Source of the DNA: a virus
Taxonomy: Duplodnaviria > Caudoviricetes
IMG/VR virus record: IMGVR_UViG_3300043464_000574
Coordinates: 1 to 56,467 of that record
Reading direction: 5' to 3' (one strand)
Length of the DNA stretch: 56,467 nucleotides
In this document: positions 6,461-33,396 of the stretch, in pieces
Layout: each line of letters begins with the position of its first letter
How positions within the stretch are numbered: the first letter of the stretch is position 1
Made by a program: the position numbers and the translations under genes
Notes under the pieces: model-generated
What the model was told of the DNA's origin: nothing
Database searches by the model: none
The model's input: the letters and a program-made list of their open reading frames with translations, nothing else

Positions 6461-6915
6461 TGATGGGAACCTCAAAATGCAGGGACAATAGCCCCCGTTT
6501 CATCACAATCCCAACCTCTCCCTCTTTTTTTAGCCCTCCACGGCGATTGAGTGGCGTAAGTCTTCAAACACATCGCCTGTCTCATCATTATTTCGCTATC
6601 GTTTCGCTCGAAACTAGGTGTTTGTTGCCTTCTTACCTCTTATTCTTAAAAGCCGAAGGCAAAATTCTTGAGAAACTACACCCTTACAGCGAATTTAGTG
6701 TTACATTTAAACCTAGTTTCTCGCTAAACTTTCAATACAATACCGATTGTATCACAATCCGGAAGGAAAGTCAATAGAGATTGTCAAAATTTTTGCAAAA
6801 AAAATTTCTACAACCTCACTGACACTCTACAACAAAATCCTACCGGAACCTGAAACACTACAACCGCTCACAACGGAACTTAACCACTATACCCCGTCTG
6901 TTGTTTATACGCAAC

Positions 6916-6945
6916 AGTAGGGGAAAGTAGGGGAAAGTAGGGGAA
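6916..6945. repeat. Tandem repeat (AGTAGGGGAA)x3
   Basis: Three exact 10-bp copies in the non-coding terL-terS gap. Confidence 0.9.
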
Positions 6946-7087
6946 TCGTTTGAGGAAAATCGTATGTATGGGTACGCGCAGGTACCCGAACGCGCACGGG
7001 GGGGTGCGGGTGCGCGATTAGACCGCGCGTGCGCCCGCGTTTAACCCCCACGGGCGTGCGTTATCTACCGCGCAGGTGCGTGCGCTT

Positions 7088-7642
7088 CTACTGCAACGAT
7101 TCAACCCCGGAACTAGCCGGGCCGCACCCGGCGTCCGACGATGGCGACGGGCCGCACCCGGCGACATTGTCGGTATCGTTGCCCGTCTCATCTGCGTTTA
7201 CACGCTGCACCGCAAGCAGTGATGACAGGCGGCGCTCCAAGTCAGCCGCAACCAATGCGGCAGGACGTTCGCGGTGATCCTCGACCACGTCGCGATACAA
7301 GCCGCAAGCCTTGCCCAACAATTCAGCCGCCCGTAGTTGAGTCTGCGTTGCGGGAGCCTCGCCGTTAGACCATTGGCGTAGTAGGCGTATGAGGTTGTCG
7401 CGGTCAGAGACCGTGCTGACCTCACTCAGCCGCCTCTTCTCCACTGCTAGCGCCTCCATGCATGCCCTAACCTTGCCGTCCACCATCAACTCCGCAGCCC
7501 TGCGCTGCACTGACGCCGGTTTCATAGCCTCTGCGTCATACGAGTTGCGATACGCCTCAGCGATACCCATGCCATTCACTACGTTTTCCGCGAATTTCCG
7601 CTGTTTTGCGGTGAGTCCGTATTCGTCGGTGATACCTGCCAT
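7088..7642 (-). CDS. terS: Terminase small subunit
   Basis: LTAKQRKFAE...AEAYR.SY HTH-like start and LRAAELLGKACGLY motif typical of TerS; upstream of terL. Confidence 0.85.
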   Translation of the reverse strand: MAGITDEYGLTAKQRKFAENVVNGMGIAEAYRNSYDAEAMKPASVQRRAAELMVDGKVRACMEALAVEKRRLSEVSTVSDRDNLIRLLRQWSNGEAPATQTQLRAAELLGKACGLYRDVVEDHRERPAALVAADLERRLSSLLAVQRVNADETGNDTDNVAGCGPSPSSDAGCGPASSGVESLQ

Positions 7643-7841
7643 TGTGCGTTTAACCCTTGTTTACTAGTGCATTTGCTAATCTTTGACCATGCTGATTGCA
7701 TGACCGACTCACCGAATCCTACTTTCGGCCATGTTTAGACGCAACTAAATTCGACCGATAATCAATGACTTAGCATACAGGCTGATAAATTTATCGTTTA
7801 ACCTGTAGACATGTGACCATGATATCGACGAGTATTGACAC

Positions 7842-8076
7842 CGCCGCAAGGCACCGGCCCTCCAGACAGGCCGCGAAAAACAAAGGTTCTGGTGCCGGAT
7901 GAGCGCAAGCAGCCCGGCGGCTCCCACAAGGGGAGTCCGGCCTAAAGCAGCGGTGTAGTCGTAGGGTTGAAGACGATGACCGACATCTCGCGAGTCGCCC
8001 GACAACGTGACGCTGCCCAACGAACCGGGAAGCCTTGGCTCAGTAGAGTGCCTTCGATGAGGGCACTGCACTGAGT
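7842..8076 (+). ncRNA. Candidate structured leader RNA of the early operon
   Basis: Dense stems: GCC-GCAA-GGC; CGGCC/GGCCG whose loop CCAGA can pair with TCTGG; CTCCC-ACAAG-GGGAG; GCAGCG/CGCTGC; long hairpin CTCAGT.AGTGCC...GGCACT..ACTGAG just before the first RBS. Confidence 0.45.
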
Positions 8077-8094
8077 CAACCAACGGAGAAGCAA

Positions 8095-8304
8095 ATGAAA
8101 TTTCGCGACTACTCGTTGACCCTGCGGGACAGCACCATGAAGACCTGCGAGGTGTTCATCAACGGCGACTGCATCAACGAGCAAATTCTGAAAGGCGTGA
8201 GCGAAGAGCAAGCAGTCGAAATGGTGGAAAGCAACGCCTTTTTCAATGCCATCGGCAGCGGCGACATTGGCGCTGACGCTTGGATCGATTCGATCAACCA
8301 ATAA
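8095..8304 (+). CDS. Early hypothetical protein
   Basis: 69 aa, GGAG RBS, first gene of the plus-strand early cluster. Confidence 0.75.
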   Translation: MKFRDYSLTLRDSTMKTCEVFINGDCINEQILKGVSEEQAVEMVESNAFFNAIGSGDIGADAWIDSINQ

Positions 8305-8318
8305 CGTGGAGAGCAAAC

Positions 8319-8606
8319 ATGTTCGACAAGTACGCTGAACACCTGCGCGACAGCGCCCCCGACAACAGCCGCTTCGACGGGTTCGACCGGGGTGATCTGG
8401 GCAACGATGAGGGCGGCGAAATCTACGGCAACGTGATTGGCCGCATGCGCTGTTGGCACGGCAAGGTCGAGATCGTCGAGGTCGTTTATCCGGACGGCGA
8501 CAGCGACTATTTCGTGCAGGTCAACGGCAGACAGGTGACCGACTTCGTAGACCGCGCACGGGCCATCGTGGTGGGTCGATGGTGGGTCAACGGTTGCCCT
8601 GCCTAA
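8319..8606 (+). CDS. Early hypothetical protein
   Basis: GGAG RBS, MFDKYAEH... 95 aa; the stop lies 2 nt before hammerhead 1. Confidence 0.75.
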   Translation: MFDKYAEHLRDSAPDNSRFDGFDRGDLGNDEGGEIYGNVIGRMRCWHGKVEIVEVVYPDGDSDYFVQVNGRQVTDFVDRARAIVVGRWWVNGCPA

Positions 8607-8608
8607 CA

Positions 8609-8660
8609 GGTCGAAACCGGCGTGAGCCGGTCTGGCGGTTGTGCCGCCACTGACGAGACC
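8609..8660 (+). ncRNA. Hammerhead ribozyme, type II (HHR1)
   Basis: GGTC-GAAA-CCGGC(GTGA)GCCGG-TC^-TGGCGG(TTGTG)CCGCCA-CTGACGA-GACC: complete CUGANGA/GAAA/GUC core with three perfect stems; predicted cleavage after C8632. Confidence 0.93.
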
Positions 8661-8686
8661 GAATTCAACCAACCATGGAGAACACC

Positions 8687-8791
8687 ATGAGCAAGTCATT
8701 CAAGCAGTCGATCAAGTCATCCAAGCAAGGCCGGTGGATTCTTCATCCGGTCGATGCAGTGCCGGTATGGGTTCCTGCCAAGCGTAAGTAA
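8687..8791 (+). CDS. 34-aa basic microprotein
   Basis: GGAG RBS; MSKSFKQSIKSSKQGRWILHPVDAVPVWVPAKRK; below the ORF-track cutoff. Confidence 0.6.
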   Translation: MSKSFKQSIKSSKQGRWILHPVDAVPVWVPAKRK

Positions 8792-8818
8792 TCACCGTTT
8801 AAACTACAGGAGAACATC

Positions 8819-8983
8819 ATGAAAATTATTCTAGTCGCTTTTTTCCAGTTTCTCGCCATGGTCGAGATGGCATGTGGCGTTCTGCTTGTCGCTGAGTCGG
8901 GTGGCGTCGGCATCTACTCGCTGATCGCGGTCGGTGCTGCCCTGTTCTGCCTTTTCTTCGCCAGTGAGGTATCCAAGTCATGA
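8819..8983 (+). CDS. 54-aa membrane microprotein (two hydrophobic segments)
   Basis: AGGAG RBS; MKIILVAFFQFLAMVEMACGVLLVAESGGVGIYSLIAVGAALFCLFFASEVSKS; ATGA overlap with the next gene. Confidence 0.65.
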   Translation: MKIILVAFFQFLAMVEMACGVLLVAESGGVGIYSLIAVGAALFCLFFASEVSKS

Positions 8984-9177
8984 TCATTCAAGTCGAACAG
9001 CGCCATGTCTACGGGTCGATCAAGTACTACCCGCTCAACGAACTGGCCTCACGGTTCGCTGCGCTGATGAAGCAGAAGACCTTCGATGCCCAGAACCTTG
9101 CGGACATTCGCCGCATGGGTGTTCAAGTGGACGTACGAGTCCCCGGTTTTTCAAACGACTATCTGGTCAGCATTTAA
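8980..9177 (+). CDS. Early hypothetical protein
   Basis: 65 aa, VYG..YYP.N..A..FA.L...KTF motif seen in small phage proteins; ATGA coupling. Confidence 0.75.
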   Translation: MIIQVEQRHVYGSIKYYPLNELASRFAALMKQKTFDAQNLADIRRMGVQVDVRVPGFSNDYLVSI

Positions 9178-9192
9178 ACACAGGAGAAAATC

Positions 9193-9414
9193 ATGGTTCG
9201 TTTTTACATTGGCGAGTTCCACCGGGTCGAATCCGGTTTCGCATTCAACCGCGATGGATCACCCCGTGACGCTATCGTGTTTTCCAATCTTGAGGCGGTA
9301 CTGGGTGCGGAGGGCGACGATATCGAACACCTCGACGCAATGCTCCGCGCTGCTAATCGCGAGTTCGCCCGTAGCGACGATGGCTCTGTGGAAATCACGC
9401 TGCGGCTCAACTAG
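9193..9414 (+). CDS. Early hypothetical protein
   Basis: 73 aa, AGGAG RBS; the TAG stop overlaps the first G of hammerhead 2. Confidence 0.75.
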   Translation: MVRFYIGEFHRVESGFAFNRDGSPRDAIVFSNLEAVLGAEGDDIEHLDAMLRAANREFARSDDGSVEITLRLN

Positions 9415-9492
9415 GTCGAAACATCCCGCGCCTTCGGGCTTGATCGCCAACAGGCCGGGATGTCGTGCCGTGATGCGGCATCTGACGAGACC
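9414..9492 (+). ncRNA. Hammerhead ribozyme, type II (HHR2)
   Basis: GGTC-GAAA-CATCCCG(27-nt insert with a GCC-TTCG-GGC hairpin)CGGGATG-TC^-GTGCCG(TGATG)CGGCAT-CTGACGA-GACC; predicted cleavage after C9464; loop TGAT can pair with the downstream GTCA. Confidence 0.92.
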
Positions 9493-9509
9493 GTCACCGT
9501 TTACACAAG

Positions 9510-9539
9510 TTGACTGCGACACAACGCAGCGTTTATACT
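9510..9539 (+). promoter_or_regulatory. Sigma70-like promoter
   Basis: TTGACT-18 nt-TATACT, followed by TCGCAACA...AACAGGAGA. Confidence 0.75.
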
Positions 9540-9565
9540 TCGCAACATTGCAACAGGAGATCACC

Positions 9566-10171
9566 ATGTTCACAGAACGTGAAACGTACCTCGCCGCCGC
9601 AGCCGTCGCGCTTCAGCACGAGGTGTTCCCCGCCGCCAACATCGCCGCTGCCGATTGGTCGCAGCGCAAGTATCGGGTCGCCTGCGGGTTCCCGATTGGC
9701 TATCGCGGGAGCCGTACCGGCAAGGTCACCTTGGGCCAAGCCTTCGACCCGTCGATCAGCGCCGATGGCACTTTCGAGGTGTTCATCAACCCGATCCTCG
9801 ACAAGCCGCTCGACGTTGTCGCGGTTCTCGCCCATGAGTTGGCGCATGTCTGGGCCGGTATCCAATGCGGTCACCGTGGCGAGTTTGCTCGTATCTCCCG
9901 CGCCATTGGCCTTGAAGGCCCGTTGACCTCGACCATCCCCGGTGTCGAGTTGCGCGGCAAGTTGGAGGGCATCGTCGGCATGTTGGGTGCCTACCCTCAT
10001 GCGAAGGTTGACCCGAATGCCCGCAAAAAGCAGGGGACGCGCCTGCTCAAGTTGCAGTGCAGCGACTGCGGGTGGACGGCTCGTGTCTCTGCCTTGCAGG
10101 GCAATCGTTTACACGCCGCGTCGCCGTGTCCGGTTTGTATTTCTGTTGGATCACTCAACGTGGAGGTTTGA
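9566..10171 (+). CDS. SprT-like zinc metalloprotease with a C-terminal zinc ribbon
   Basis: HELAH zincin motif plus downstream H (GHRGEF), CSDCGW...CPVC; AGGAG RBS before ATG 9566. Confidence 0.8.
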   Translation: MFTERETYLAAAAVALQHEVFPAANIAAADWSQRKYRVACGFPIGYRGSRTGKVTLGQAFDPSISADGTFEVFINPILDKPLDVVAVLAHELAHVWAGIQCGHRGEFARISRAIGLEGPLTSTIPGVELRGKLEGIVGMLGAYPHAKVDPNARKKQGTRLLKLQCSDCGWTARVSALQGNRLHAASPCPVCISVGSLNVEV

Positions 10172-10173
10172 TC

Positions 10174-11223
10174 ATGGCAACTCAATCGACCTACGTTCAT
10201 CAGCCCCGTCACAAGCATGAGGGCGAACGCACCACCTTCTCGCTGCCGCTGTCAGACAGCGACCGCTCGTACCTCAAGATGCACGCCGTGCGGCAGGGCA
10301 AATCGCCCAACGCGCCGGACGATGTCCTGCTCTCCATCTGGAACGGGGTCGATCCGGCCCCGGTTCGTGCGGAACTGGACTGGGCGACCATCGATGGCAT
10401 TCGCAAGGACGCTATCGCTGCCGCTGTCGCTGCGGTAGAGCAGCACCGCCCCGTGCGGATTGAAATCAAGCAGGGCGCACAAATTCGCACCCTCCCCGAT
10501 GGTCACCGTCACCCGGTCTTCGGTGATGTCCTCGCGGCCCTCTCCGTTCGCGAGAACGTGTACTTGGTTGGCCCTGCCGGTTCCGGCAAGACGACCATCG
10601 CCGCACAGGCTGCTGACGCACTGGGTCTGCCGTTCTACAGCACGGGCGCTGTCGGCATGGCGTACCAGTTGCAGGGATTCATCAACGCCGAAGGCAAGTA
10701 CATGGAGACCGACCTCTACCGTGCGTATGTCGGCGGGGGCGTGTTCCTCTTCGATGAAATCGATGCATCGTCGGCGCAGGCATTGCTTGCCTTCAACGCA
10801 ATCGCCGCGAACGACCTCGCTGCCTTCCCGTGCGGCACGGTTAAACGCCACGCTGACTTCGTGATCATTGCCGCTGCGAACACTTGGGGCAGCGGTGCTG
10901 ACGCGCAGTATGTGGGCCGCGCTCAACTCGACGCAGCCACGCTCGACCGGTTCGCGTTCATCAGCATGGACTATGACGAGCGTCTGGAACTCGCGATCAG
11001 CAGCAACGATGAGTGGACGCGCTATGTCCAAGCATTCCGTCGCATCACCCGCCAGTTGAAGATTCGCGCAGTGGTTTCACCTCGCGCATCGATCAAGGGC
11101 GGCAAGTTACTGAGCGCGGGTCTGTCATGGAATCGCGTCGAAGAGATGCTGCTCATTCGCGGACTGTCGGCCAATGAGGTCGAACAGGTTCGCGCTCAAT
11201 TGCCACAGAGGAAAGTCGCATGA
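10174..11223 (+). CDS. MoxR/CbbQ-like AAA+ ATPase
   Basis: Walker A GPAGSGKT, Walker B FLFDEID, AAANT.G.G, LDAATLDRF, VVSPRAS. Confidence 0.9.
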   Translation: MATQSTYVHQPRHKHEGERTTFSLPLSDSDRSYLKMHAVRQGKSPNAPDDVLLSIWNGVDPAPVRAELDWATIDGIRKDAIAAAVAAVEQHRPVRIEIKQGAQIRTLPDGHRHPVFGDVLAALSVRENVYLVGPAGSGKTTIAAQAADALGLPFYSTGAVGMAYQLQGFINAEGKYMETDLYRAYVGGGVFLFDEIDASSAQALLAFNAIAANDLAAFPCGTVKRHADFVIIAAANTWGSGADAQYVGRAQLDAATLDRFAFISMDYDERLELAISSNDEWTRYVQAFRRITRQLKIRAVVSPRASIKGGKLLSAGLSWNRVEEMLLIRGLSANEVEQVRAQLPQRKVA

Positions 11224-17151: not shown

Positions 17152-18042
17152 ATGAAACTTACAAACAAGCATGGCTTGCCCAACACCGTCGTTCGTGCGT
17201 TGACCCGTAGCGAATACAGCAAGGGCGAAAGCAATCGATCCATCACTCAACTCATCGACTCACCCCGTGTTCGCATTCTCCGTCAGGAGAACTGGGAGAA
17301 CATGGAAGAGGATGTGAGCGAGAAAATGTGGGCAGTACTAGGCTCTGCCGCACATAAGATGTTCGAAGAGACCGGCGATGATAAGCACATTACCGAAGAG
17401 CGACTCTTCACTGAGATCGATGGCTGGGTCATCTCCGGTGCAATTGACGTACAGCGCGTCGAAGAAGACGGCATCACCATCCTCGACTACAAGACGACCA
17501 GTGTCTGGTCTGTGATCCTTGGGAAGGAAGGATGGGAAACGCAGTTGAACTGCTACGCATCCCTTGTCCGACGTGCGAAGAGCAAGAAGGTCAAGGCATT
17601 GAAGGTGGTGGCTATCCTCCGTGACTGGAACCGCCGCGATGCAGAGCAGAAGCAAGACTACCCGAAGGCACCCATCGTCGAGATCGATATCCCAATGTGG
17701 GATGAGCCGGTACAGGATCAGTACTTGGAAGATCGCGTTGCGTTGCACCAATCGGCTGAGTTCCAGAGACTGACTGGAGCGGAACTCCCTGAGTGTTCGA
17801 AGGAAGAGCGATGGGAGAAGCCTTCGATCTGGGCTGTCAAGAAGAAGGGCAACAAACGAGCCATCAAACTCTATGACAGTGAGTCTGAGGCGAAGGCTGC
17901 GCTTCTTGATGGTCAGGAGGTTGAGTTCCGTCGAGGGGAACCCGGACGATGTGCGGCTAACTGGTGCCGTGTAAACGCATGGTGTTCACAACACAAAAAA
18001 TATATCGACGAACTTGCCGAAACTCTGGCTCAAGACTCTTGA
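17152..18042 (+). CDS. PD-(D/E)XK (Cas4-like) exonuclease
   Basis: GSAAH, ISGAID, ILDYKTT, QLNCY, C-terminal cysteines; adjacent to the annealase gene. Confidence 0.85.
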   Translation: MKLTNKHGLPNTVVRALTRSEYSKGESNRSITQLIDSPRVRILRQENWENMEEDVSEKMWAVLGSAAHKMFEETGDDKHITEERLFTEIDGWVISGAIDVQRVEEDGITILDYKTTSVWSVILGKEGWETQLNCYASLVRRAKSKKVKALKVVAILRDWNRRDAEQKQDYPKAPIVEIDIPMWDEPVQDQYLEDRVALHQSAEFQRLTGAELPECSKEERWEKPSIWAVKKKGNKRAIKLYDSESEAKAALLDGQEVEFRRGEPGRCAANWCRVNAWCSQHKKYIDELAETLAQDS

Positions 18043-18090: not shown

Positions 18091-18798
18091 ATGACTGAAG
18101 TATCTGCACCGACTTATGCAGAGATCTGGACGACCCTGTCCAAGATCGATGTCTCAAAGCATGTTGAAAAGAAGAACGGATTGTCCTATCTCAGTTGGGC
18201 ATGGGCATGGGGTGTTCTCATGCAGCAATACCCGCAGGCTGAGTATTCGTTTGCACACTCTGAGTTGCATCCTGATGGGACGGTGACGGTTCACTGCGAC
18301 ATCATGATCGGCCAGTGCCACCGGATGATGTGGCTCCCGGTCATGGACCACCGCAACAACGCCATCAAGAATCCTGATGCACGAAAGATCAGCGACACGA
18401 AGATGCGTTGCTTGGTGAAGTGCCTCGCGATGTTTGGACTCGGGCATTACATTTATGCCGGAGAGGATGTCCCGTCCACGGAACAGGAGTCCGCTCCGGT
18501 TCTGAGCAACGAGGAGATCACCGCCCTCAACGAGCCGCCTCCGAAGGTGAAGAAGGTGGCCCCGACAAAGCAGGGTCCGAACGATATCCCGACAGAGGAA
18601 GGCGCTGCGGAGGTTGTTGGGAAACTCATGGAGTTCGCCAACAAGTTCTGCGCGGATGAGGCAGGACTCAAGTCTTTCTGGAAGGAGAACAAACAGGTTA
18701 TCGATATCCTCGACAGCAACTACCCCGCTCAATACGAGGTGTTGAAGAAGGGATTTATTGAGTTGAAGGCAAAACTTGGAGGAAACAACAATGGCTGA
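18091..18798 (+). CDS. Sak/Rad52-like single-strand annealing protein (DUF1071-type)
   Basis: EKKNGLSYLSWAWAW, LPVMD.RN, MRCLVKCLAMFGLGHYIYAGED. Confidence 0.88.
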   Translation: MTEVSAPTYAEIWTTLSKIDVSKHVEKKNGLSYLSWAWAWGVLMQQYPQAEYSFAHSELHPDGTVTVHCDIMIGQCHRMMWLPVMDHRNNAIKNPDARKISDTKMRCLVKCLAMFGLGHYIYAGEDVPSTEQESAPVLSNEEITALNEPPPKVKKVAPTKQGPNDIPTEEGAAEVVGKLMEFANKFCADEAGLKSFWKENKQVIDILDSNYPAQYEVLKKGFIELKAKLGGNNNG

Positions 18799-24608: not shown

Positions 24609-24965
24609 CTAGGCAGCGTTCTCCTGTTTGCTGCCTGTTTGTGAAACCTTCTTGAGGGGGGTCAAGTCTGACTCCCCTCCTTTTTCGTCCAACAGACGGA
24701 TGGTTTCAGCCAGCAGATCCAATTCGGATAACTTGGCGATCTTCATCAGAGCCTTGGTTCCGTGGAACCCATGAGTTCCCCGATGGCATTCCACACAGAG
24801 AGCCACAGTCAGGTAGTCACTTGCCCTGTCCCCAAGCCCATGCCCGGTACGGATATGGTGGGCTTCTGTCACAGAGGTTTGAGGCTGGCCCAGTAAGGAA
24901 CAGAGGACACAGTCCAACTGTTTAACCTTGCCGAGGTACTGACTAGCCTGCTTGTCTCTGCTCAC
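24609..24965 (-). CDS. HNH-like zinc-binding protein (DUF968/Ref-like)
   Basis: CVLC...EAHHIR...ALCVECHRG..GFH. Confidence 0.7.
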   Translation of the reverse strand: MSRDKQASQYLGKVKQLDCVLCSLLGQPQTSVTEAHHIRTGHGLGDRASDYLTVALCVECHRGTHGFHGTKALMKIAKLSELDLLAETIRLLDEKGGESDLTPLKKVSQTGSKQENAA

Positions 24966-27900
24966 TAAATGCGGTCCTTCTTAAAATTGGCATGATCTGA
25001 AGTGTTGCATTCATGTTTGCGTCCATCTGATCAATGACCTGCTTCTTAATCTCAGGGTCCAAAGGCGACTTCAGTACTGCATCCTTTTGGTCCCTATAAT
25101 TTTTCATGATCTTATTCAACGCATCAACGCCAGACTTCACAGCAAGAATGTTCTGATTCTCCATGATATAGGCGTTCAATTCTTCAATGCGCCCATCCTC
25201 GCGCAACTGCCTAATCGTGTTGGTAACTTTGCCAACCTCGCGATAGAGGTCGTAATACTGAGCCTGCAGACCCGGCTGATTGGCATCCGCAAAGAATCGA
25301 CGTACAAACGGATACTCATACGGATCACGCGCCGGATACGCTCTGTCTGAATCCCTCAAAAGATGATCGATTGCATCAAGCGTATAGGTTCCCAATGTCC
25401 CGAAGTATCCGTTCAAAAGATGGTCAATCTTAATAGGCGAATATCCGGTAGCCTCGCCAAGTCTACGCGCCAGTTCGTTAGTACCAAATCTTGTTTGGTA
25501 TTCTGCGGCGATCCGCTCATCCATGTAGGGCGGGATCACTGACCTTCCAGTGAAGGTATCGTAGTTCGCGTAGATCTCTGCAATAGGCAACACAGCCTGC
25601 GGGATTGGGTTAAACGCGAGAGTCGATGTTACAGCGCGAGCCGCAGATTGACGTGCGTCTCTGAAGGTATCTGTCCCATCAGACAAACGCATGATCCGCT
25701 CTGGCAAAGTCTTGAATAGCAACCCAACTTCAAACGGAATAGGAATGCGAATAGCGAAGCCCATGCCGGTTGGGAATATGTAGTAGTTATCGAGAACTTC
25801 AGGGTTTGCGTTCTTGTACTCATCGTCATCAGAGACCATGGAGTAGTAGTACATGGTCAATCCAACCATCAGTGCTGCTCTTGCCGTAAAGTTAAGAGCA
25901 TTCTTTGTGCGACTTCTGGTAGGCCCGAACTGTCCTGTTCCCGCTTGATACAATTTATCTAAGCCCTGAATGCGAGCATTCAAGAATGGCACTATCGCAC
26001 TCAAGGTGCGGATGATCGGACTTCTTCCACGCCGACCGTAGTTCATTACAGACAGCGCCTGATATACCGCTTCGGCTTCGTTGCCAGTTCTCTTCAGAGT
26101 GTCTTCATAAACTCTGATTCGGTTAAACGCCTCTGATCTATCAGAGACTTGGCCTGCTGCATCCCATATCCAACTGAATGGCTTGAGGTATTTAGACCTT
26201 GATACTTTTCCCAACGCGCTTGGGTATTCGACAGGAATCTCATGCCCCATCTTCTTGGCTTCGTCAGAAAGATAAACCGCCATATCCTTAGGGTCTCTGG
26301 CAAAGTCATATCCGCCTATCACGCCAGTCCTTCTTAACTGATCAAACCCATCTGCAAAGTTTTTTACCGCAGTTCCCGCTGCGGCAATACTGGCTTGGCT
26401 TGTAAACGTGACAGAGGCTGTATCGCGTATCAAGTTTGCAATCATGTACCCCGGTTCACGGGTAATCATTTCGCGAAGTATGCTGGCTGGAACTCTGAAA
26501 ACAGTTTCCAATACGCCAGTAACGCCAAGTTCAGGCAGCGCCTGCATAGATTCAAAGATCAATGGGTCATCAATAAACGCACTGTATTTCTTTCCTTGAA
26601 CCTTGAACGTAACAGTTGATAAACCTTCTGTTTGCTGCCCCGGCTGAACCATTCTGCCCAAGCCAATCTGAATCATGTCGCGCACAATGCGCTGCTGCGC
26701 GACGTTCTTCATGCCCATCGCAATCGCTGCATCAAGGTTGGTCAAGATCGATTCCAGAAGCGGCATGTTGATGGCTTCTGAACTTTTACCCACAGCCTTG
26801 AGGTGAGTAGTAGAAGTTAATCCACCAAAGATCTTTGGGTGAGCAACAGATCCACCTCTGGTCTCACGGTAAAACGGAATGTAGTCCGACTGCTGTAACC
26901 ACAACTGTGCGCCTGCATCGTCGATCATCCCGGTATCGCGCAGGAACTGAACAACGTATCCATTGTACGCCTGCCATGCGTCATACCATTCCTTGATGAT
27001 TGAATTGCCGGTTTCAGGGTTAACGAATCTTGCTACTTCGGCTTCCAGCCGAGGAAGATCTGCCGGGTCTCCCGGCGCTAACTTGCCTTCTGCGGTTAAA
27101 CGGCGACCACGCAGGGCAATGGCATACGATTGGGCGAGCCGCTCAAGGTTCCCGTACTGATTGGAATACAAAGGGGCCATGACCTCTGCCAGTCCACGGT
27201 AACGCCTGTTGTTGTGGATGAAGTCCTCGACCTTGACGAGTCCGTTTCTGTAAACAGGGACGCCATCTTTAATGGCAGACGCAGTGATTGCCCTATGTCG
27301 ATCTGCCAACTCTACACCCACAAGGGCGCTAGAGTCGGCTGTGTTACGCATCAGATTAGGATCGCGTTGGTAGAGATACTCAAGGCGCGAGTTGTTATTG
27401 ATCCAGTTCATTCTGAAGATTTCGACCAGTCTTCTGAATGGACTTAACGTCAGACCTTGGACAATGGTCTGTCCAACGGTTTGATTAGGCGGATCAACCG
27501 CTAACTTGTCGAGGATCTGATCAACGCCGGGGCTATAGGTCGGCTGATTGTTACGCGAATATCGAATGAAATCGTTTGCGTCTAACTTCTCGCCAGCCTC
27601 GGGGTTCTGAGCAACATACAAGGCTTCTGGAGAAGCGTTTAAATTGTATAGCGGGACCGTTCCAAACGGAGCCTTGGCAATGTTCTCTTCTGCTTTCTTA
27701 ACCGCACGATCAAGTTGCTCTTTCGGACGAGCGCGAGACTCCCGAACTATTTGTTCAGTTTCTGCTTGCGGTAGAGTTCCACTAACTTCGCTACTTGGCG
27801 GTTCAACTGCTCCCTCGACAGGCTCAGTTGTTCCCGGTCGAACTCGTTCTGCTCGGCGCTGTCTGCGGCCCCGAACCCTATCCTCGGCTCGCTTAATTGC

Positions 27901-30900
27901 TCGTTCATCAACTCCGGATTGACGGAGGAATTGTTTTGTACTGTTTGCATAGTCCTGCCTGACATGCCTTAACTTGACGCCAAGTTTCTTGTATAGATCT
28001 TGCTCAGGATACCATATCAACGCTTGAAATGCAGCGGGCGGAATATCTTGACCAGTACGATCTTTAAGTTTACTGACCGCACGATTCACGACATCACGCA
28101 ATTGCGATCGTTCAGTTCCCGTAGAAGGAGCATCGCGAGTTGCTTTCAGTGATTTGACAATAGTGATCGCAGCATTTGTCGCTTCAGATTTCTTGCGAAT
28201 GCCAGCGTCATACTCTGATCGGAACCTCTTGAAGTCGCTCTCATGTTGTTTTGCAAGTTGTCTTGCGCGAGCAACAAGATCATCCGTTGATGCGCCTTCC
28301 ATGCCCTCGGCCTTGGCAAGACGGTTTAACTGCTTGGCAAACTTCTTCTCATCAAAGTCCATTAACTTGCCGCGCAAACGGCCAATGGTTCGCATGAACC
28401 ACATATCTATGGTGACCGGACTAAAGTCTCCGCGCAGATTGGTGTAGAAACCGTTACCAATCTTGGGTCCGAACACAGCAGATCCGTAGACCGGAGCGTC
28501 AACCAGTTCACCGCCAACCTTAGCGCCTTTGCCAAGATGGCCCTTTAGGATTCCGTTTAAATCTCCAGCGCGGAACTTAGTTTGCAAGAAATCAGTGAAG
28601 GCTTGCATAGAACCCAACTGATTGATAAGTTCGTTCGCCTTCTGAAAATTCTTCTTGATGGAACCAGACTTTGATCCGTATCCCTTCTCTGGGAACCGGC
28701 CAGTACGTTTGAAGTAACTGTAAACTTCTTCGGCATACTTGAGGTTATCTGGAACCGCAAGGTTCTGAGAAGTAATGGCAAGGCCAGTGAGGAATGCAGT
28801 ACGAGCATTGGGATCAGTCTTGATCTCCGGATGCTTGAGCGCAAGCATTTCGATGGTGCGCTCAATGGTAGTGTCATACCACTCCAACGCATTCTTCTGC
28901 ACTTCCATCTCATAGAGGGCTTCCTCTACGAGATCATCGGCAATGGCATCTCGGTCTGCTTCGTTGTTTAAATCACGAACACGACCCAGTCTTTCCAGCG
29001 CACGATCTTGTAGGAACTGCGCGACCTGAGTTTTGCCAGCCATCTTCCTTGGTGGCAACTCCTCATTGGACATGATGGAGACTACGTTTGGCGATTCGCC
29101 AGCAGGCGCTGCACGACGCGACTCCCGAATGCTGGGGGTAGTCGGACTAAAGTCGCCCGTGTTTCCAATGGCAGACTTGATCTGACCGGGGTCAAAGACG
29201 GCGAGGTTCTTCTGACCGCCCTCTTCCACGAACATGCTGTCATAGCCAAGTTCCCGAATGGCATTAAGAATCGGGGAGTTACCATCTTCTCCTTCAATAG
29301 TTCCCCAGTCGCCCTTTTTAAATTGCTCTATCTGTCCTGAGTCAAGATCAATGGGGGAGATTTCCCTGACCTTCTTTAGGACTCTGTTGATATGTTCCTT
29401 GTTGTCGTAGTCAAACGAATTTTCTGCTTTGACATACACAGGCATGAGATTGGCTCCAGAAGGAAGTCTCTTCTGGATGGCATCCAAGTAACGGCTGCTT
29501 CGTCCTCCTGCTGCGGAGTCCTTGAAGATTTTAAGCAAGCCGGGGCGGATGGCTTTACCGGCAGACACTTCCGCTACTGCTTTATCTCTCGCCTCAGCCA
29601 TCATGTCGTATAGGCTTGGGGTGAAAGCAGATGATCTTTGCAGTGTCTCGTTCAGGATATCGATGACCTGCTCATCACTCATGAAGTCAGGGAAGTTGCC
29701 GACCATGTAGTCTTGAGACAATGCTGAGAATTCTTCAGCGAATCTAGGACTACGGGTCATGAACACTGCGCCAGCCTGCTTCGGACGGAACTGAGTAATG
29801 TCGGCAGCGGTTCCGTGGTAGAACACCAACGGACGGCCCTGCTTGTCAGTAGTCTTGCTGTCGCCAAACCAGTTCCAGAAGTTCTGAAGACCTTCCTGCG
29901 TAGGCTTGGTTTGAATGCCGAACACTTCCGGCCCTTCATAGCCAGAGTAAATGACTCGGTTTTCTGAGTCCAAGGTTGGCTTCAGTCTGCCAGCCACCTC
30001 AATGTTGGCAGGCACATTCTCAATGCTGCGACGTGACTCACGAATCGCTGCACCTTCCAACATAGCAGGGTTGAAGTCAGTTCCAGCCGGGGCTTTCTGC
30101 TGAAACTGTTGCTGTACCTGAACCTTCTTCTGCTCACGCTCTTGGTTACGAGCAACAGGACTCGCGATGATCGGCTGATAGTCTGCAAACCGCTCGGGCA
30201 ATACGCCCTGCTTTGCAAGTTCAGCCTCCGTAGCCCGAAGCGTTCTGATCTCGCCACGGGTACGCGCACCAATTTCACCAGACTGCAAACGATCCAAGAT
30301 GTCGGTGTAGTTCTGGAACCCTGCACCACGGAACGAATTGTCCAACTTGTCGAAGAAGTTAAACAGTCTGTCGGTAAGCACTTTTGGCTTTCCTGCAACT
30401 GCTTTGTTGCCAAACTTCTTGGCTTGACGGCTGAGATCCGCAACCGCTTCTTCTTCCCGAATCAACGGACTCTGGTCTGCATACGTCCGGTTGGCCCATT
30501 GAAGATAAGTCTCATTGGTCTCTTGACCAGTATTAGAATCACGCCGCCTTAGTTTGGCTGAAGCACGGGATAGCGTGTCCCATTCTTGCCCAGTCCAAAG
30601 ATCCAGTTCCCGTGCAGGGTGAACGATTTCGTGGTTTAGAACATCGACCAATGCGTTTACACGCTGTTCAGGGGTCAGTGTTTTGTCGGGATCAACACGA
30701 TCCACCGCCAAGGTGATCTCGCGCAGGAACGGGTTGTAATACCCTTCCGTCTCTGCGCCCATCTCTTGCATGTAGCGGACAGGATCACCGTAGTTGAGTA
30801 GGGTCTGATCGATACGGGTGGCGATATCGTCCAACCCGAATCCCTTCATCTTCTTGCGAATCTCTTCACGCAGGAAGTTGTAGGTGTCGGTGGTATCGGT

Positions 30901-33396
30901 CGGAGCAGGCAACAAAAGAACAGGCTTGGCCGGTCTTGCTGTGGGAACCCCTTGCTTCTGCAAGTCCTGCTTGATCGCATCGACTTTGATTTGCAGTCGT
31001 TCATCACCCGGCAGGAACCCCGCAGCCTCTGCGATCTGTTGGTCAGTGACCGATTGATCAAGGGAGTTGGCATCCTGCACGAACTTCGATGCACGAAGGA
31101 AGTTCTCGCGGGTATACGGCTTGGCTTCAAAGACCGGCAGTTTGGTAGTGGCTTCGAAGGTCGGCAGATTACGCAGACGGGCGTACAGCAACCGCTGCTC
31201 GCCGAAGTTCATGTCCGCCAGCGATTCCTTGCCGACGATAGATTTAAACAGCGCCTTGATTTCCGGCGTATCAATTTCTGATCCGACGTTCTTGGCTTTG
31301 AGTAGACGAGTGACTTCGTTGGTGAGCGTCTTCTCGCCCTTCATCAGGGCATTGATCTCTTGGATTGACAGTCCTTGGCCCTTGGCCGCTTCACGGTTCT
31401 TGCGATCCGCAAAAGCCTGAGCGTCTTCCAAAGACTGCAGTTCAATCTTCTGGCCTACCTTAACTCTAGGTGTGCCGTCCTCGTTCTTACCTGATGCATC
31501 GCTATCTTCTTGGCTGGCAAATCGCGTTTGAAATACTTCGCCAGCACTGCTTACTACAGAAGGAATATTGACGGTTGTTCGTTTGCCTTTTGAAACTTCA
31601 ACTTCTGTGGGAACAATCGTAGCCGTATAGGTCATGCCATCCGGGATGGCTTGCACATTGATATCGGTTAGGCGTTCGAACTTGTCGCCCAGTGCATCAC
31701 GGGCTTCTTCGACGGTGAAGGTCTGGGTTTCAGGGAGACCTTGTTCCTTGCGCTTCTGGTTGATCTGCTGCGCGAGGGTCAGACCGGGAACCACCATCTC
31801 CTTTTGGCCCGGTCCCTGAACCTTATAGCCAACCCGCTTCCCATCTTCCTTGACCTCTTCACCATCAAGGATCGTCTGGAAACTGTAGTTCTCAATGTAA
31901 CCCTTATCGGCTGTCGTACCGGCTGCTTCGTTGAGTGCAGCCGAGGTGATCATGTTCGCTTCCGGGTTCAGGATCTGATACCCGTAACGAGTCAGCGTGT
32001 CAGTAGTTACCTGATCGTAAGACTGACCGGAAGTCTCAAGGGTATTGAGGATCTGACCACGGATCTGACCATCGATCACTTCGTTGTTTAAACCATAAGA
32101 CAGGCCAACGGCTTGCTCATAGTTTTGAACTGGTTGACCGTACTGTCTCCCAGTAGAGTCCACCACCACATAGTTCGGGATGCGTTCACCCGTTTCGGTG
32201 ACAGTGGGGTCAACTTCTTTAACTTCAAACTTGGTATTGGCGGGGAAGTAGTCCCCCAGTTCACGCGATATAAGCCGCGCATAAGCCTGTCCAGCCGTTA
32301 CCGGCGCACCTTCGACAGTCGGGGCAGGGATGTTAACTGCGCCCGCCTGAGCGGCCTCAGCGGCTCTGCCAAATGCAGCCGGGTCAGCCTGCCGATTCGC
32401 ACGACGCTCTGCTTCAGCAGCCAAACTAGCCCGGATCTTTTCAATGTTGGCTTGCTCGCGCTCACGAGCCTTGGCTTCGTATTCGCGCTGCGCTTCGGTG
32501 GTCATGAAACTGCGGCGACCGGCTGCTGCATTGACCACGAAATCGGTAAATGCACCCACTGCACCGCCAACGGTCAGATCGTCCCACAAGGACTGACCTA
32601 TCGGCATCTTCTCGTTGTAGACGCCTCTTTCAGTAAGGTCTTGCAGAAGACCTGCACCAGCCTCCTGAACCGCTTCCTCTGCGCCGCCACGAATAGATCG
32701 CTGCAACAGATCCAAGATGCGGGACTTGTCTACTGGGGTGATGTTGCTTGGAACGCGCTTGAGGATGTTTGCAATCGGAGCAATTTCAGACAGTCCGATT
32801 ATTCCTCCCAATGCGATGGCGGCATCTTCTTGGCCTTGGCTAACATCAAGTCCCTGTGCGCGAGCGGCTGCAATACGCTGCGCCTGATCTCCTGCACCGG
32901 CTCCCGTGGCAAGCGTTGCGGCTGCACCCAACTCTCGGGTTCCCATGCCAAGTCGGGTGGCTTTGCCTGCTGCACCTAATGCTCTGAGGCCCGCAGCAGG
33001 AGTGAGGAACGAAGCCATCGATCCCACGCCTTCACCGAACTTGGTAAACCAAGCATCGGAGTAGTTGGGATCTACTCCCAGTGCGCTGTTGTTAATCCAA
33101 TCGCGACCAGCGCGGGAAGCCTTGACGAGTTCATTCTCTTCGCCGGTATCGATAGCATCTTTCAGGCCCACCACATTGGTCGCGGCATCTGCAAGTTCTG
33201 CTAAACCTTCGCCAGCAGACAGGAATGCTCCAGCAAACCCACGGCCAACGCCTTTAAACGTCTCGCCTACTTGGCCTAAGACAGTACGCTCTGGCTCTGG
33301 CTCTGGCTCGACAGGAGCGGGAGTGCTTGCTAGATAAGCATCCGGGTCGAAAGCAGTGGACTTTTCAGCCAGATACTTATCTGGATCGAAAGCCAT
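24943..33396 (-). CDS. Giant polyvalent ejection protein (zincin peptidase, ART-like, DNA-processing-like and LPD38-like domains)
   Basis: 2817 aa; HEIVH at 30619-30633; WFGDSK...VFYHGT...PVYV...GYD...AVFDPGQIKSAIGN (ART-PolyVal-like); WY...VTIDMWFMR...QALIW domain; C-terminal RIPIPFEVG (LPD38-like); last gene of the ejection operon. Confidence 0.8.
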   Translation of the reverse strand: MAFDPDKYLAEKSTAFDPDAYLASTPAPVEPEPEPERTVLGQVGETFKGVGRGFAGAFLSAGEGLAELADAATNVVGLKDAIDTGEENELVKASRAGRDWINNSALGVDPNYSDAWFTKFGEGVGSMASFLTPAAGLRALGAAGKATRLGMGTRELGAAATLATGAGAGDQAQRIAAARAQGLDVSQGQEDAAIALGGIIGLSEIAPIANILKRVPSNITPVDKSRILDLLQRSIRGGAEEAVQEAGAGLLQDLTERGVYNEKMPIGQSLWDDLTVGGAVGAFTDFVVNAAAGRRSFMTTEAQREYEAKAREREQANIEKIRASLAAEAERRANRQADPAAFGRAAEAAQAGAVNIPAPTVEGAPVTAGQAYARLISRELGDYFPANTKFEVKEVDPTVTETGERIPNYVVVDSTGRQYGQPVQNYEQAVGLSYGLNNEVIDGQIRGQILNTLETSGQSYDQVTTDTLTRYGYQILNPEANMITSAALNEAAGTTADKGYIENYSFQTILDGEEVKEDGKRVGYKVQGPGQKEMVVPGLTLAQQINQKRKEQGLPETQTFTVEEARDALGDKFERLTDINVQAIPDGMTYTATIVPTEVEVSKGKRTTVNIPSVVSSAGEVFQTRFASQEDSDASGKNEDGTPRVKVGQKIELQSLEDAQAFADRKNREAAKGQGLSIQEINALMKGEKTLTNEVTRLLKAKNVGSEIDTPEIKALFKSIVGKESLADMNFGEQRLLYARLRNLPTFEATTKLPVFEAKPYTRENFLRASKFVQDANSLDQSVTDQQIAEAAGFLPGDERLQIKVDAIKQDLQKQGVPTARPAKPVLLLPAPTDTTDTYNFLREEIRKKMKGFGLDDIATRIDQTLLNYGDPVRYMQEMGAETEGYYNPFLREITLAVDRVDPDKTLTPEQRVNALVDVLNHEIVHPARELDLWTGQEWDTLSRASAKLRRRDSNTGQETNETYLQWANRTYADQSPLIREEEAVADLSRQAKKFGNKAVAGKPKVLTDRLFNFFDKLDNSFRGAGFQNYTDILDRLQSGEIGARTRGEIRTLRATEAELAKQGVLPERFADYQPIIASPVARNQEREQKKVQVQQQFQQKAPAGTDFNPAMLEGAAIRESRRSIENVPANIEVAGRLKPTLDSENRVIYSGYEGPEVFGIQTKPTQEGLQNFWNWFGDSKTTDKQGRPLVFYHGTAADITQFRPKQAGAVFMTRSPRFAEEFSALSQDYMVGNFPDFMSDEQVIDILNETLQRSSAFTPSLYDMMAEARDKAVAEVSAGKAIRPGLLKIFKDSAAGGRSSRYLDAIQKRLPSGANLMPVYVKAENSFDYDNKEHINRVLKKVREISPIDLDSGQIEQFKKGDWGTIEGEDGNSPILNAIRELGYDSMFVEEGGQKNLAVFDPGQIKSAIGNTGDFSPTTPSIRESRRAAPAGESPNVVSIMSNEELPPRKMAGKTQVAQFLQDRALERLGRVRDLNNEADRDAIADDLVEEALYEMEVQKNALEWYDTTIERTIEMLALKHPEIKTDPNARTAFLTGLAITSQNLAVPDNLKYAEEVYSYFKRTGRFPEKGYGSKSGSIKKNFQKANELINQLGSMQAFTDFLQTKFRAGDLNGILKGHLGKGAKVGGELVDAPVYGSAVFGPKIGNGFYTNLRGDFSPVTIDMWFMRTIGRLRGKLMDFDEKKFAKQLNRLAKAEGMEGASTDDLVARARQLAKQHESDFKRFRSEYDAGIRKKSEATNAAITIVKSLKATRDAPSTGTERSQLRDVVNRAVSKLKDRTGQDIPPAAFQALIWYPEQDLYKKLGVKLRHVRQDYANSTKQFLRQSGVDERAIKRAEDRVRGRRQRRAERVRPGTTEPVEGAVEPPSSEVSGTLPQAETEQIVRESRARPKEQLDRAVKKAEENIAKAPFGTVPLYNLNASPEALYVAQNPEAGEKLDANDFIRYSRNNQPTYSPGVDQILDKLAVDPPNQTVGQTIVQGLTLSPFRRLVEIFRMNWINNNSRLEYLYQRDPNLMRNTADSSALVGVELADRHRAITASAIKDGVPVYRNGLVKVEDFIHNNRRYRGLAEVMAPLYSNQYGNLERLAQSYAIALRGRRLTAEGKLAPGDPADLPRLEAEVARFVNPETGNSIIKEWYDAWQAYNGYVVQFLRDTGMIDDAGAQLWLQQSDYIPFYRETRGGSVAHPKIFGGLTSTTHLKAVGKSSEAINMPLLESILTNLDAAIAMGMKNVAQQRIVRDMIQIGLGRMVQPGQQTEGLSTVTFKVQGKKYSAFIDDPLIFESMQALPELGVTGVLETVFRVPASILREMITREPGYMIANLIRDTASVTFTSQASIAAAGTAVKNFADGFDQLRRTGVIGGYDFARDPKDMAVYLSDEAKKMGHEIPVEYPSALGKVSRSKYLKPFSWIWDAAGQVSDRSEAFNRIRVYEDTLKRTGNEAEAVYQALSVMNYGRRGRSPIIRTLSAIVPFLNARIQGLDKLYQAGTGQFGPTRSRTKNALNFTARAALMVGLTMYYYSMVSDDDEYKNANPEVLDNYYIFPTGMGFAIRIPIPFEVGLLFKTLPERIMRLSDGTDTFRDARQSAARAVTSTLAFNPIPQAVLPIAEIYANYDTFTGRSVIPPYMDERIAAEYQTRFGTNELARRLGEATGYSPIKIDHLLNGYFGTLGTYTLDAIDHLLRDSDRAYPARDPYEYPFVRRFFADANQPGLQAQYYDLYREVGKVTNTIRQLREDGRIEELNAYIMENQNILAVKSGVDALNKIMKNYRDQKDAVLKSPLDPEIKKQVIDQMDANMNATLQIMPILRRTAFSEQRQAG

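Follow-up and report, generated by a model that had tools for sequence, protein, structure and literature searches.

Why would a phage set two self-cleaving RNA motifs around a handful of its own small genes? The question is raised by the 56,467-nucleotide (nt) IMG/VR virus record IMGVR_UViG_3300043464_000574, a linear sequence with a completeness estimate of 95%, which was analysed at its full length and is called the window here. An earlier note on this DNA had described two complete type II hammerhead ribozymes on the coding strand, each beginning at a stop codon, and had proposed that the four-gene RNA between them is excised and circularised; self-processing of the early messenger RNA was mentioned as a simpler alternative. 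The observation of two complete hammerheads proved real and clear-cut. Comparison with related phages, through strand, position rules and copy number, supports the simpler of the two ideas: we estimate at roughly 60% the probability that the hammerheads act as processing sites or insulators in a polycistronic early mRNA, with every new end carrying a hairpin.

Two complete type II hammerheads begin at stop codons

The two elements are the following.

8609..8660, + strand: hammerhead ribozyme 1 (HHR1), type II; cleavage predicted 3' of C17, which is position 8632
9414..9492, + strand: hammerhead ribozyme 2 (HHR2), type II with a 27-nt insertion in stem III; cleavage predicted 3' of C17, which is position 9464

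Both have the type II permutation, with stems I and III closed by loops and stem II open, and both show the same order along the strand: a stem II strand, GAAA, the stem III hairpin, UC, the stem I hairpin, CUGACGA and the second stem II strand. Stem II of HHR1 pairs GGUC 8609-8612 with GACC 8657-8660 and encloses G12-A14 (8613-8615), A15.1 with the stem III hairpin and U16.1 (8616-8631), the stem I hairpin (8633-8649) and C3-A9 (CUGACGA, 8650-8656). Stem II of HHR2 pairs GGUC 9414-9417 with GACC 9489-9492 around GAA (9418-9420), an extended stem III (9421-9463), stem I (9465-9481) and CUGACGA (9482-9488). The shared segments that the earlier note had read, GGTC-GAAA and CTGACGA-GACC, are present in both copies. 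The invariant core is complete in each (C3 U4 G5 A6 N7 G8 A9, G12 A13 A14, A15.1-U16.1 and an H17 that is not G), as is the three-way junction, in which stems I, II and III are paired beside the core (1.1-2.1, 10.1-11.1 as G-C and 15.2-16.2 as C-G). Immediately upstream, the stop codon TAA 8604-8606 lies 2 nt before stem II of HHR1, and the G of the stop codon TAG 9412-9414 is itself the first base of stem II of HHR2.

We scanned both strands of the window with a type II descriptor of our own, consisting of GAAA, a stem III hairpin with an A-U closing pair, an H17 other than G, a stem I hairpin, CUGANGA and a stem II that closes the motif. Exactly two sites, HHR1 and HHR2, were returned; 200 dinucleotide shuffles gave six matches in total (mean 0.03, maximum 1). 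Within the window, CTGACGAGACC occurs at 8650 and 9482 only. A covariance model built from 48 phage hammerheads that share the architecture of HHR1, designated R1, scored 8603-8676 with 78.2 bits and 9408-9508 with 55.8 bits and had no other match in the window at E≤1. When the isolated motifs are folded, the hammerhead is the minimum free energy (MFE) structure of both, at -25.5 kcal/mol for HHR1 and -38.1 kcal/mol for HHR2. Sequence, descriptor scan and covariance model agree on two complete coding-strand type II hammerheads at stop codons, which confirms the initial observation.

The Infernal search with Rfam models that the earlier note had suggested gave a divided answer. At gathering thresholds there were no matches in the whole window. 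In E-value mode HHR1 was found at full length with Hammerhead_II (RF02276, clan CL00010) as its best match, at 26.5 bits (cut-off 37) and an E-value of 0.0066, and HHR2 was not reported. The low score is explained by the Rfam model, which has a 2-bp stem II and a pseudoknot tail, and not by a defective core.

A widespread subclass with compensatory changes in all three stems

To place the two copies among other hammerheads we used a pattern consisting of the two conserved cores and the GGUC/GACC stem II only, with no hairpin pairing presupposed. It was found in at least 120 stretches among viral contigs and in at least 120 prokaryotic genome contigs from many bacterial and archaeal phyla. Among the matches listed, both hairpins and the UH junction were present in 90 of the 109 distinct viral ones, and in none after the spacers had been shuffled.

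The 48 copies with HHR1 architecture align without gaps. Their core columns are invariant, and so are the A immediately preceding stem II and, in loop I, the initial U and the final G. Double (compensatory) changes occur at 13 of 16 pairs, across the three stems, and the covariation score is 0.697, compared with 0.130 in shuffles, none of 500 of which reached 0.697; the 48 copies had been selected with a pairing descriptor. All nine column pairs with the highest mutual information are stem I or stem III pairs, and a search of the alignment for long-range covariation beyond the stems, such as a pseudoknot, found none. That stems I and III differ between HHR1 and HHR2 and yet stay paired had been taken as a sign of selection on structure, and the massive covariation throughout the subclass carries this point well beyond a single pair of copies. 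In what follows, loci used for comparison are cited by L numbers, and relatives are the 43 loci encoding a relative of the window's SprT-like protein. Hammerheads of the HHR2 type occur in L004, L009, L011-L014, L017 and L038; in the nine copies compared, covariation is seen in stem I and at the base of stem III, and the inner part of the insertion is conserved. The insertion of HHR2 (27 nt, 9429-9455) has a near-invariant interior, UCGGGCUUGA..GCCA.C, and the surrounding stem covaries.

On sequence grounds, these hammerheads belong to a widespread phage subclass in which stem II has 4 bp (mostly GGUC/GACC), stem I has 6 bp and a U-NNN-G loop, and a loop I-tail pseudoknot is not enriched. In 18 relatives (a subset of L003-L041, 120 kb) that hold many R1 matches, Rfam reported none at gathering level. 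The subclass scores below the Hammerhead_II cut-off and is therefore missed by routine Rfam annotation, which is of practical concern for a subclass this abundant. At the same level Rfam also detected no twister, pistol, hatchet or HDV-like ribozyme in the window and these 18 relatives, so none of these replaces the hammerhead in versions of the region that lack one.

Fixed placement and variable copy number suggest a function at single gene junctions

Among 150 distinct hammerhead contexts, 133 have a frame of 30 codons or more whose stop codon lies no more than 14 nt upstream, and the same held for 460 of 3000 random positions (15%). The modal stop positions are -2, where a TAG shares its G with stem II, and -5, where TAA or TGA is followed by CA. 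On the downstream side, a Shine-Dalgarno motif with a start codon was found within 120 nt in 137 of the 150 (median 23 nt). An A/C-rich tail usually lies between the hammerhead and the Shine-Dalgarno motif; in most of the 48 aligned hammerheads it is rich in AAC/CAACC and followed by GGAG.

We then compared the region among relatives. Between a conserved leader (7600-8090) and the conserved SprT-like gene, which serves as an anchor, lies a hypervariable stretch in which small open reading frames (ORFs) are reshuffled from phage to phage. Window and relatives together contain 45 matches to R1 at E≤3.7e-10, every one on the coding strand. The number of hammerheads in this interval varies among its 27 distinct versions: seven have none, 14 have one, four have two, and one version each has three and four. 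The genes between hammerhead copies also differ. Variable copy number together with differing genes fits a function exerted at each junction and not one exerted by a pair. The commonest place for a hammerhead is that of HHR2, just before a conserved sigma-70-like promoter and the anchor.

Individual relatives illustrate this variability. The nearest one, L003, has a homologue of orf108 (the frame that ends ahead of HHR1) with the same C-terminus directly upstream of a single hammerhead, which is followed by the promoter and the SprT-like gene; it corresponds to the window minus the cassette and minus one hammerhead. In L020 and L023, a segment matching 8665-9184 at 92.7% identity, which holds the first three cassette ORFs, lies upstream of an HHR1-like copy and not downstream of it. 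In L038, a homologue of orf73, the last cassette ORF, is directly preceded by an HHR2-type hammerhead, with none behind it. The expectation that related phages keep paired ribozymes around variable early genes was borne out for the variable genes and not for the pairing, since only six of the 27 versions have two or more. In a wider sample, 37 of 127 hammerhead-bearing locus-strands hold two to six hammerheads spaced about 250-1500 nt apart, counts that are not fully independent in that some contigs were fetched twice.

Probable processing and insulation of early mRNA

Based on these rules, we regard both hammerheads as probably functional ribozymes and propose that each, lying in an intercistronic gap of a same-strand operon, would cut the polycistronic RNA just past the upstream stop codon, either during or after transcription. 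The upstream mRNA would then carry a terminal stem III hairpin and a 2',3'-cyclic phosphate. The downstream mRNA would start from a 5'-OH, with the stem I hairpin first, then a short leader rich in A and C, and then the ribosome-binding site. Type II is the sole one of the three permutations that leaves a closed hairpin on both products, so that the cut should yield two protected ends. Neighbouring cassettes would thereby be uncoupled, each having a well-defined end capped by a hairpin, and a uniform 5' leader, regardless of which gene recombination puts alongside. HHR2 in particular would separate the cassette transcript from the promoter-driven SprT-like unit, and the SprT-like gene would be expressed from its own promoter as well as from ribozyme-cut read-through RNA. 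From the observed motifs, their conservation and covariation, the strand and position rules and the variable copy number, we infer that cleavage occurs in vivo and that it affects stability and translation.

Such an arrangement has parallels in engineered and natural mRNAs. RiboJ is an engineered insulator derived from a type III hammerhead, in which an intercistronic cut gives a context-independent 5' leader hairpin. In T7 early mRNA, the cuts are made by host RNase III, whose products have a 5'-phosphate, a 3'-OH and a 3'-terminal hairpin. What these systems share with the phage studied here is an intercistronic cut with a hairpin-bearing 5' leader and 3' end; unlike T7 early mRNA, the RNA is predicted here to cut itself and to carry 5'-OH and cyclic phosphate ends.

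Several points weigh against this interpretation. Seven of the 27 versions of the region lack any hammerhead, so that the benefit can be dispensed with. Stabilisation by the new ends is something that we infer, and where the host has RNase J a 5'-OH can instead target an RNA for degradation, as the literature on glmS illustrates. Neither hammerhead attains the curated Rfam cut-off of 37 bits for Hammerhead_II. When 131-156 nt of native sequence are folded, the active structure is less stable than the MFE by 2.2 kcal/mol for HHR1 and 3.7 kcal/mol for HHR2, and the nearest-neighbour model gives stem II a probability of at most 0.005, because both of its strands find alternative partners. In 21 of 152 copies (loci L002-L164), HHR2 included, the 3' tail can pair with core positions C3-N7 (CUGAN with N'UCAG). 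Finally, a loop I-tail pseudoknot of at least 4 bp is not enriched in the subclass (27, compared with 23.4 +/- 3.6 for shuffled tails): loop I and tail can form at most 3 bp in HHR1, and in HHR2 4 bp are available, although there the tail is taken up by pairing with the core. According to the sections of Perreault et al. (2011, PMC3088659) drawn on here, this pseudoknot is critical for fast type II cleavage and is found in the majority of type II hammerheads, though not in all of them.

A tail hairpin that would sequester the core of HHR2

The competing structure in HHR2 is a small hairpin.

9483..9496, + strand: alternative hairpin UGACG/CGUCA, part of the MFE structure of HHR2 with its flanks

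In the folding model, this hairpin would sequester core positions U4-G8 by pairing them with the 3' tail, and the final C of the GACC strand would be drawn in as well. In 19 of 19 cases, the base that precedes UCA in the tail is complementary to N7 (C with G in 12, U with A in seven), and comparison of the sequences points to a conserved off-state or a post-cleavage trap.

A hairpin of this kind would suit a different role, namely that of a switch-off device. Cleavage would expose the cassette mRNAs to decay and time early shut-off, much as glmS does for its mRNA, and it would be gated by upstream translation, which ends 2-5 nt before stem II, and in HHR2 also by the tail hairpin. The placement of stop codons is compatible with such gating (no more than 14 nt away in 133 of 150 contexts, modally at -2 or -5), because a terminating ribosome, given its usual footprint, would cover stem II and GAAA. 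In the MFE or close to it, both stem II strands have other partners; this and the strict covariation of N7 with the tail (19 of 19) can be read in the same way. However, the tail hairpin is found in only 21 of 152 copies, HHR1 is not among them, and both cleavage products end in stable hairpins, contrary to what one would expect of a decay trigger. We consider a switch-off function rather unlikely.

Proposed excision and circularisation of the cassette

The more far-reaching proposal of the earlier note was that double cleavage frees nt 8633-9464 and that the ends of this fragment re-form a chimeric hammerhead, so that the reverse reaction or host RtcB turns it into a circular, exonuclease-resistant four-gene mRNA. 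The ORF list agrees with an 832-nt fragment carrying four small ORFs, the first of which has 38 or 34 amino acids (aa) depending on its start. The geometry of the chimeric hammerhead is also formally correct, with stem I-CUGACGA-GACC at the 5' end and GGUC-GAAA-stem III-GUC at the 3' end. In the MFE structure of the whole fragment (RNAfold), GACC 8657-8660 pairs with GGUC 9414-9417 with a probability of about 0.72; with shuffled interiors, the same pairing has a mean probability of 0.22 +/- 0.30, and two of 20 shuffles reach 0.72. Hammerhead ends are, moreover, substrates of RtcB, and ribozyme-flanked RNAs circularise in retrozymes and viroids, as described in the parts of two reviews used here (PMC6155905, PMC6765202).

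The comparative data speak against this model. Pairs are not conserved: two or more hammerheads occur in six of 27 versions, a single one in 14 and none in seven, and in L003, the nearest relative, the cassette is missing and a single hammerhead is present. Identical stems II were seen as the basis of compatibility between the two ends; they are indeed identical in the window, but so are those of most of the subclass, 162 of 191 copies having this default sequence. Covariation of stem II is confined to single ribozymes, each of which has an intact helix of its own; among 21 neighbour pairs with unlike stems II, in loci retrieved by means of the GGTC/GACC pattern, 13 would combine into a mismatched chimeric helix. 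The chimeric helix would have 4 bp, worth -3.8 kcal/mol as a duplex, and would have to close across a 753-nt loop, the entropic cost of which the model underestimates. The covarying tail hairpin, which sequesters the core in a subset of the ribozymes including HHR2, would oppose re-association.

The gene content points in the same direction. We searched the window for RtcB, an Rnl2-type RNA ligase and a reverse transcriptase (RVT_1) and found none of them encoded there, so that ligation would not be provided by an RtcB or RNA ligase of the phage. In the portion of Perreault et al. (2011, PMC3088659) that concerns such clusters, neither spliced nor circular products were detected (data not shown in that paper), and our literature search turned up no later report of natural circular RNAs from phage hammerheads.

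RNA-labelled sequencing runs were also inspected for the predicted joint. Only three of them contained small shares (0.07-0.11) of the sampled words of 8200-9800; these runs, available as contigs only, showed no 9464->8633 joint, with the limit that contigs hide ends and drop rare forms. Over 7900-10300, the contigs of RNA-labelled runs showed no pile-up of ends, a feature that contigs cannot reveal. Two contigs from riverine RNA libraries (3457 and 5170 nt) cross an HHR1-like element (8606-8660, four differences); they stem from relatives and are possibly derived from DNA.

Circularisation is thus topologically possible, but the comparative data show no selection for pairs or for stems compatible in trans. 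With pairs in the minority, stem II covarying in cis only, no ligase from the phage and no circles in the cited part of the 2011 study, the circular mRNA is unsupported, and we regard it as very unlikely. The earlier interpretation as a whole was half right. A still bolder version of it would have hammerhead-bounded RNA units carry small early genes between phages.

Hammerheads and the shuffling of cassettes

The reshuffling of genes around the hammerheads raises the question whether their DNA, and not their RNA, is what matters. They could serve mainly as dispersed direct repeats at which a Sak-like protein and an exonuclease shuffle cassettes, with RNA cleavage being secondary or incidental. 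Alignment end points between the window and relatives cluster at the edges of HHR1 (29 of 157) and HHR2 (18 of 157) and at the leader motifs, and L003 differs from the window by precisely the cassette and one hammerhead. Stems are also found in many combinations: 21 stem III variants and 18 stem I variants occur in 27 of them, one stem III being joined to four different stems I. In addition, a 179-nt contig of a relative (run X22) has the stem III of HHR1 joined to the stem I of HHR2 before an orf73 homologue, with different sequence on both flanks, and the phage encodes both a Sak-like single-strand annealing protein (18091-18798) and an exonuclease (17152-18042).

Recombination alone, however, requires neither invariant catalytic nucleotides nor compensatory changes in three stems, a fixed strand or placement between a stop codon and a ribosome-binding site. 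The cores that the copies share are just 8-11 nt long, some of the clustering of BLAST end points at a conserved island is a methodological artefact, and a four-gamete test for recombination between stems I and III yielded no quartet. A role mainly as DNA repeats therefore appears unlikely to us, and we retain mRNA processing as the preferred explanation.

The 179-nt contig had also been considered as a product of RNA 'exon ligation', given that its joint, 8629->9462, is compatible with 8632|9465. This candidate was rejected on account of its flanks, neither of which agrees with the window: 29 unlike letters stand upstream of the joint, and AACA plus the orf73 region downstream. With such flanks and a run that is probably DNA, the contig represents the genome of a relative.

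Two further observations concern the mobility of genes in this region. The exonuclease gene (phrog_2139) adjoins the gene for the Sak-like annealing protein (phrog_8492/659), and the two make up a recombination pair that could be behind the shuffling of cassettes. A segment resembling 8992-9107, which belongs to the 65-aa cassette ORF, recurs elsewhere in L013, L015-L018, L026 and L040, its second place being about 1.3-3.6 kb beyond the start of the SprT-like anchor. Judging from this recurrence, the small gene seems to move within the early region.

Relation to known hammerhead systems

The arrangement found here was already described in 2011. The relevant parts of Perreault et al. (PLoS Comput Biol, PMC3088659) report clustered hammerheads in prophages that flank genes, propose that they process long transcripts and already suggest spliced or circular products from the clusters; the idea of a circular mRNA is consequently not new, and this phage adds another case. 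Like those clusters, as described there, the window has at least two same-strand type II hammerheads close together in a phage genome, flanking small genes of inconstant identity, and processing into operon-length or gene-length mRNAs was proposed for them as it is here. In contrast to what those parts of the paper describe, the present case is no prophage but a contig of a free phage from lake water, its hammerheads have a 4-bp stem II without an enriched loop I-tail pseudoknot and score below the Hammerhead_II cut-off, and HHR2 carries a conserved 27-nt stem III insertion.

Cleavage of comparable elements in cells is documented for Desulfovibrio vulgaris, in which, according to the excerpted results of a cyPhyRNA-seq study (PMC8782182), three type II hammerheads near phage-like genes are active. 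As described there, these also lie beside hypothetical or phage-like genes and are expected to leave 2',3'-cyclic phosphate and 5'-OH ends. They differ in that they occupy three separate chromosomal loci and their cleavage is proven, whereas the two copies studied here bracket a cassette and are known from sequence.

The closest likeness to the proposed circle is offered by retrozymes, Avsunviroidae and satellite RNAs, in which, in the reviews as far as cited (PMC6155905, PMC6765202), two tandem hammerheads on one transcript bound a unit of several hundred nt whose ends can re-form one hammerhead and suit a ligase for 2',3'-cyclic phosphate and 5'-OH ends. Those units, in the same accounts, are non-coding, carry type III or type I hammerheads, and replicate or retrotranspose. 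Here, the unit contains four ORFs with ribosome-binding sites, the hammerheads are of type II, the window encodes no reverse transcriptase, and the paired state is not kept among relatives. In the passages that deal with phage and bacterial hammerheads, both reviews treat the role of these elements as an open question and the processing reading as unproven.

The lineage provides a natural test bed for this question, with zero to four ribozymes in one short interval whose two borders, the conserved leader and the anchor gene, stay the same. The rules of placement and covariation (stop codons 2-5 nt ahead of stem II, ribosome-binding sites about 23 nt past the ribozyme, terminal hairpins on both products, cis-only covariation of stem II and a subset with a covarying, core-sequestering hairpin) make processing testable through predictions on mRNA ends and stability, and they weigh against circular mRNA as the selected function.

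Cassette ORFs and flanking genes

The hammerheads and the genes around them are arranged as follows, in order along the + strand.

7734..7762, + strand: promoter-like site TTTAGA-17-GATAAT (9/12 matches), candidate start of the early transcript
7765..8094, + strand: conserved leader of about 330 nt with no convincing ORF, preceding the first early ORF
8095..8304, + strand: orf69, small ORF, no Pfam or PHROG family
8280..8606, + strand: orf108, up to 108 aa; likely start at an ATG after GGAG near 8319; stop TAA 8604-8606
8661..8686, + strand: A/C-rich leader with GGAG, between HHR1 and cassette ORF 1
8675..8791, + strand: cassette ORF 1, 38 aa, or 34 aa from ATG 8687 after GGAG
8819..8983, + strand: cassette ORF 2, 54 aa, hydrophobic
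8980..9177, + strand: cassette ORF 3 (orf65), 65 aa, resembling small hypothetical viral proteins only
9193..9414, + strand: cassette ORF 4 (orf73), 73 aa; the last base of its stop codon TAG is also the first G of HHR2
9510..9539, + strand: predicted near-consensus sigma-70-like promoter TTGACT-18-TATACT (10/12 matches), 18 nt 3' of HHR2
9566..10171, + strand: SprT-like / phrog_6361 gene, conserved right-hand anchor of the hypervariable region

None of the six small ORFs had a match in Pfam or PHROGs. In the Atlas search, orf73 had no match and orf65 matched small hypothetical viral proteins only. A counterpart of the promoter-like site at 9510-9539 is kept in L003, L004, L012 and L038.

Upstream of the cassette, genes for the small terminase, the large terminase and the portal protein are transcribed leftwards from 7642. 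A block of + strand genes begins at about 8095 and includes the SprT-like gene and genes for a CobS-like AAA ATPase, a DUF7192 protein, the exonuclease and the Sak-like annealing protein; a primase/helicase gene lies within it on the - strand. The hammerhead pair sits at the very start of this block, which makes 'early' a reasonable label for the cassette genes, one that is drawn purely from position. No tRNAs were found.

The candidate start of the early transcript lies within a short block, 7732/7735-7773, that most relatives conserve and that aligns at 87-95% in many of them, and 7600-8090 as a whole aligns at 70-86% in many relatives. The conserved leader behind it ends in a CAACCAAC-GGAG leader motif. 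Its RNA folds at -122.4 kcal/mol (z -2.95; one of 100 shuffles as good), and neither the leader (7765-8094) nor the wider stretch 6400-8110 matches an Rfam family. The leader could be a structured 5' untranslated region or a small RNA.

The phage occurs in many lake-water metagenomes, at least half of the sampled words of 8200-9800 being present in 21 lake-water DNA runs. Its four nearest cultured phages by large terminase (TerL), namely 023Pt_psg01, DSL-LC04 and the pelagiphages HTVC027P and HTVC023P, show 52-58% TerL identity and contain no match to covariance model R1. As a search of the phage collection likewise returned no DNA match to 8000-10300, no tractable cultured carrier was identified.

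Two other stretches of the genome stand out. Between the small and large terminase genes, 613 nt (6476-7088) contain no convincing ORF and have a G+C content of 47%. Three tandem copies of GTAGGGGAA with 10-nt spacing occur there at 6917-6945, a number that none of 100 shuffles reached; 6933-7056 is kept at about 82-86% in many relatives, and the rest of the stretch varies. It may be a packaging or terminase-binding site. On the - strand, 24943-33396 is a single ORF of 2817 aa that matches only PHROGs of unknown function (phrog_18222 and phrog_9854).

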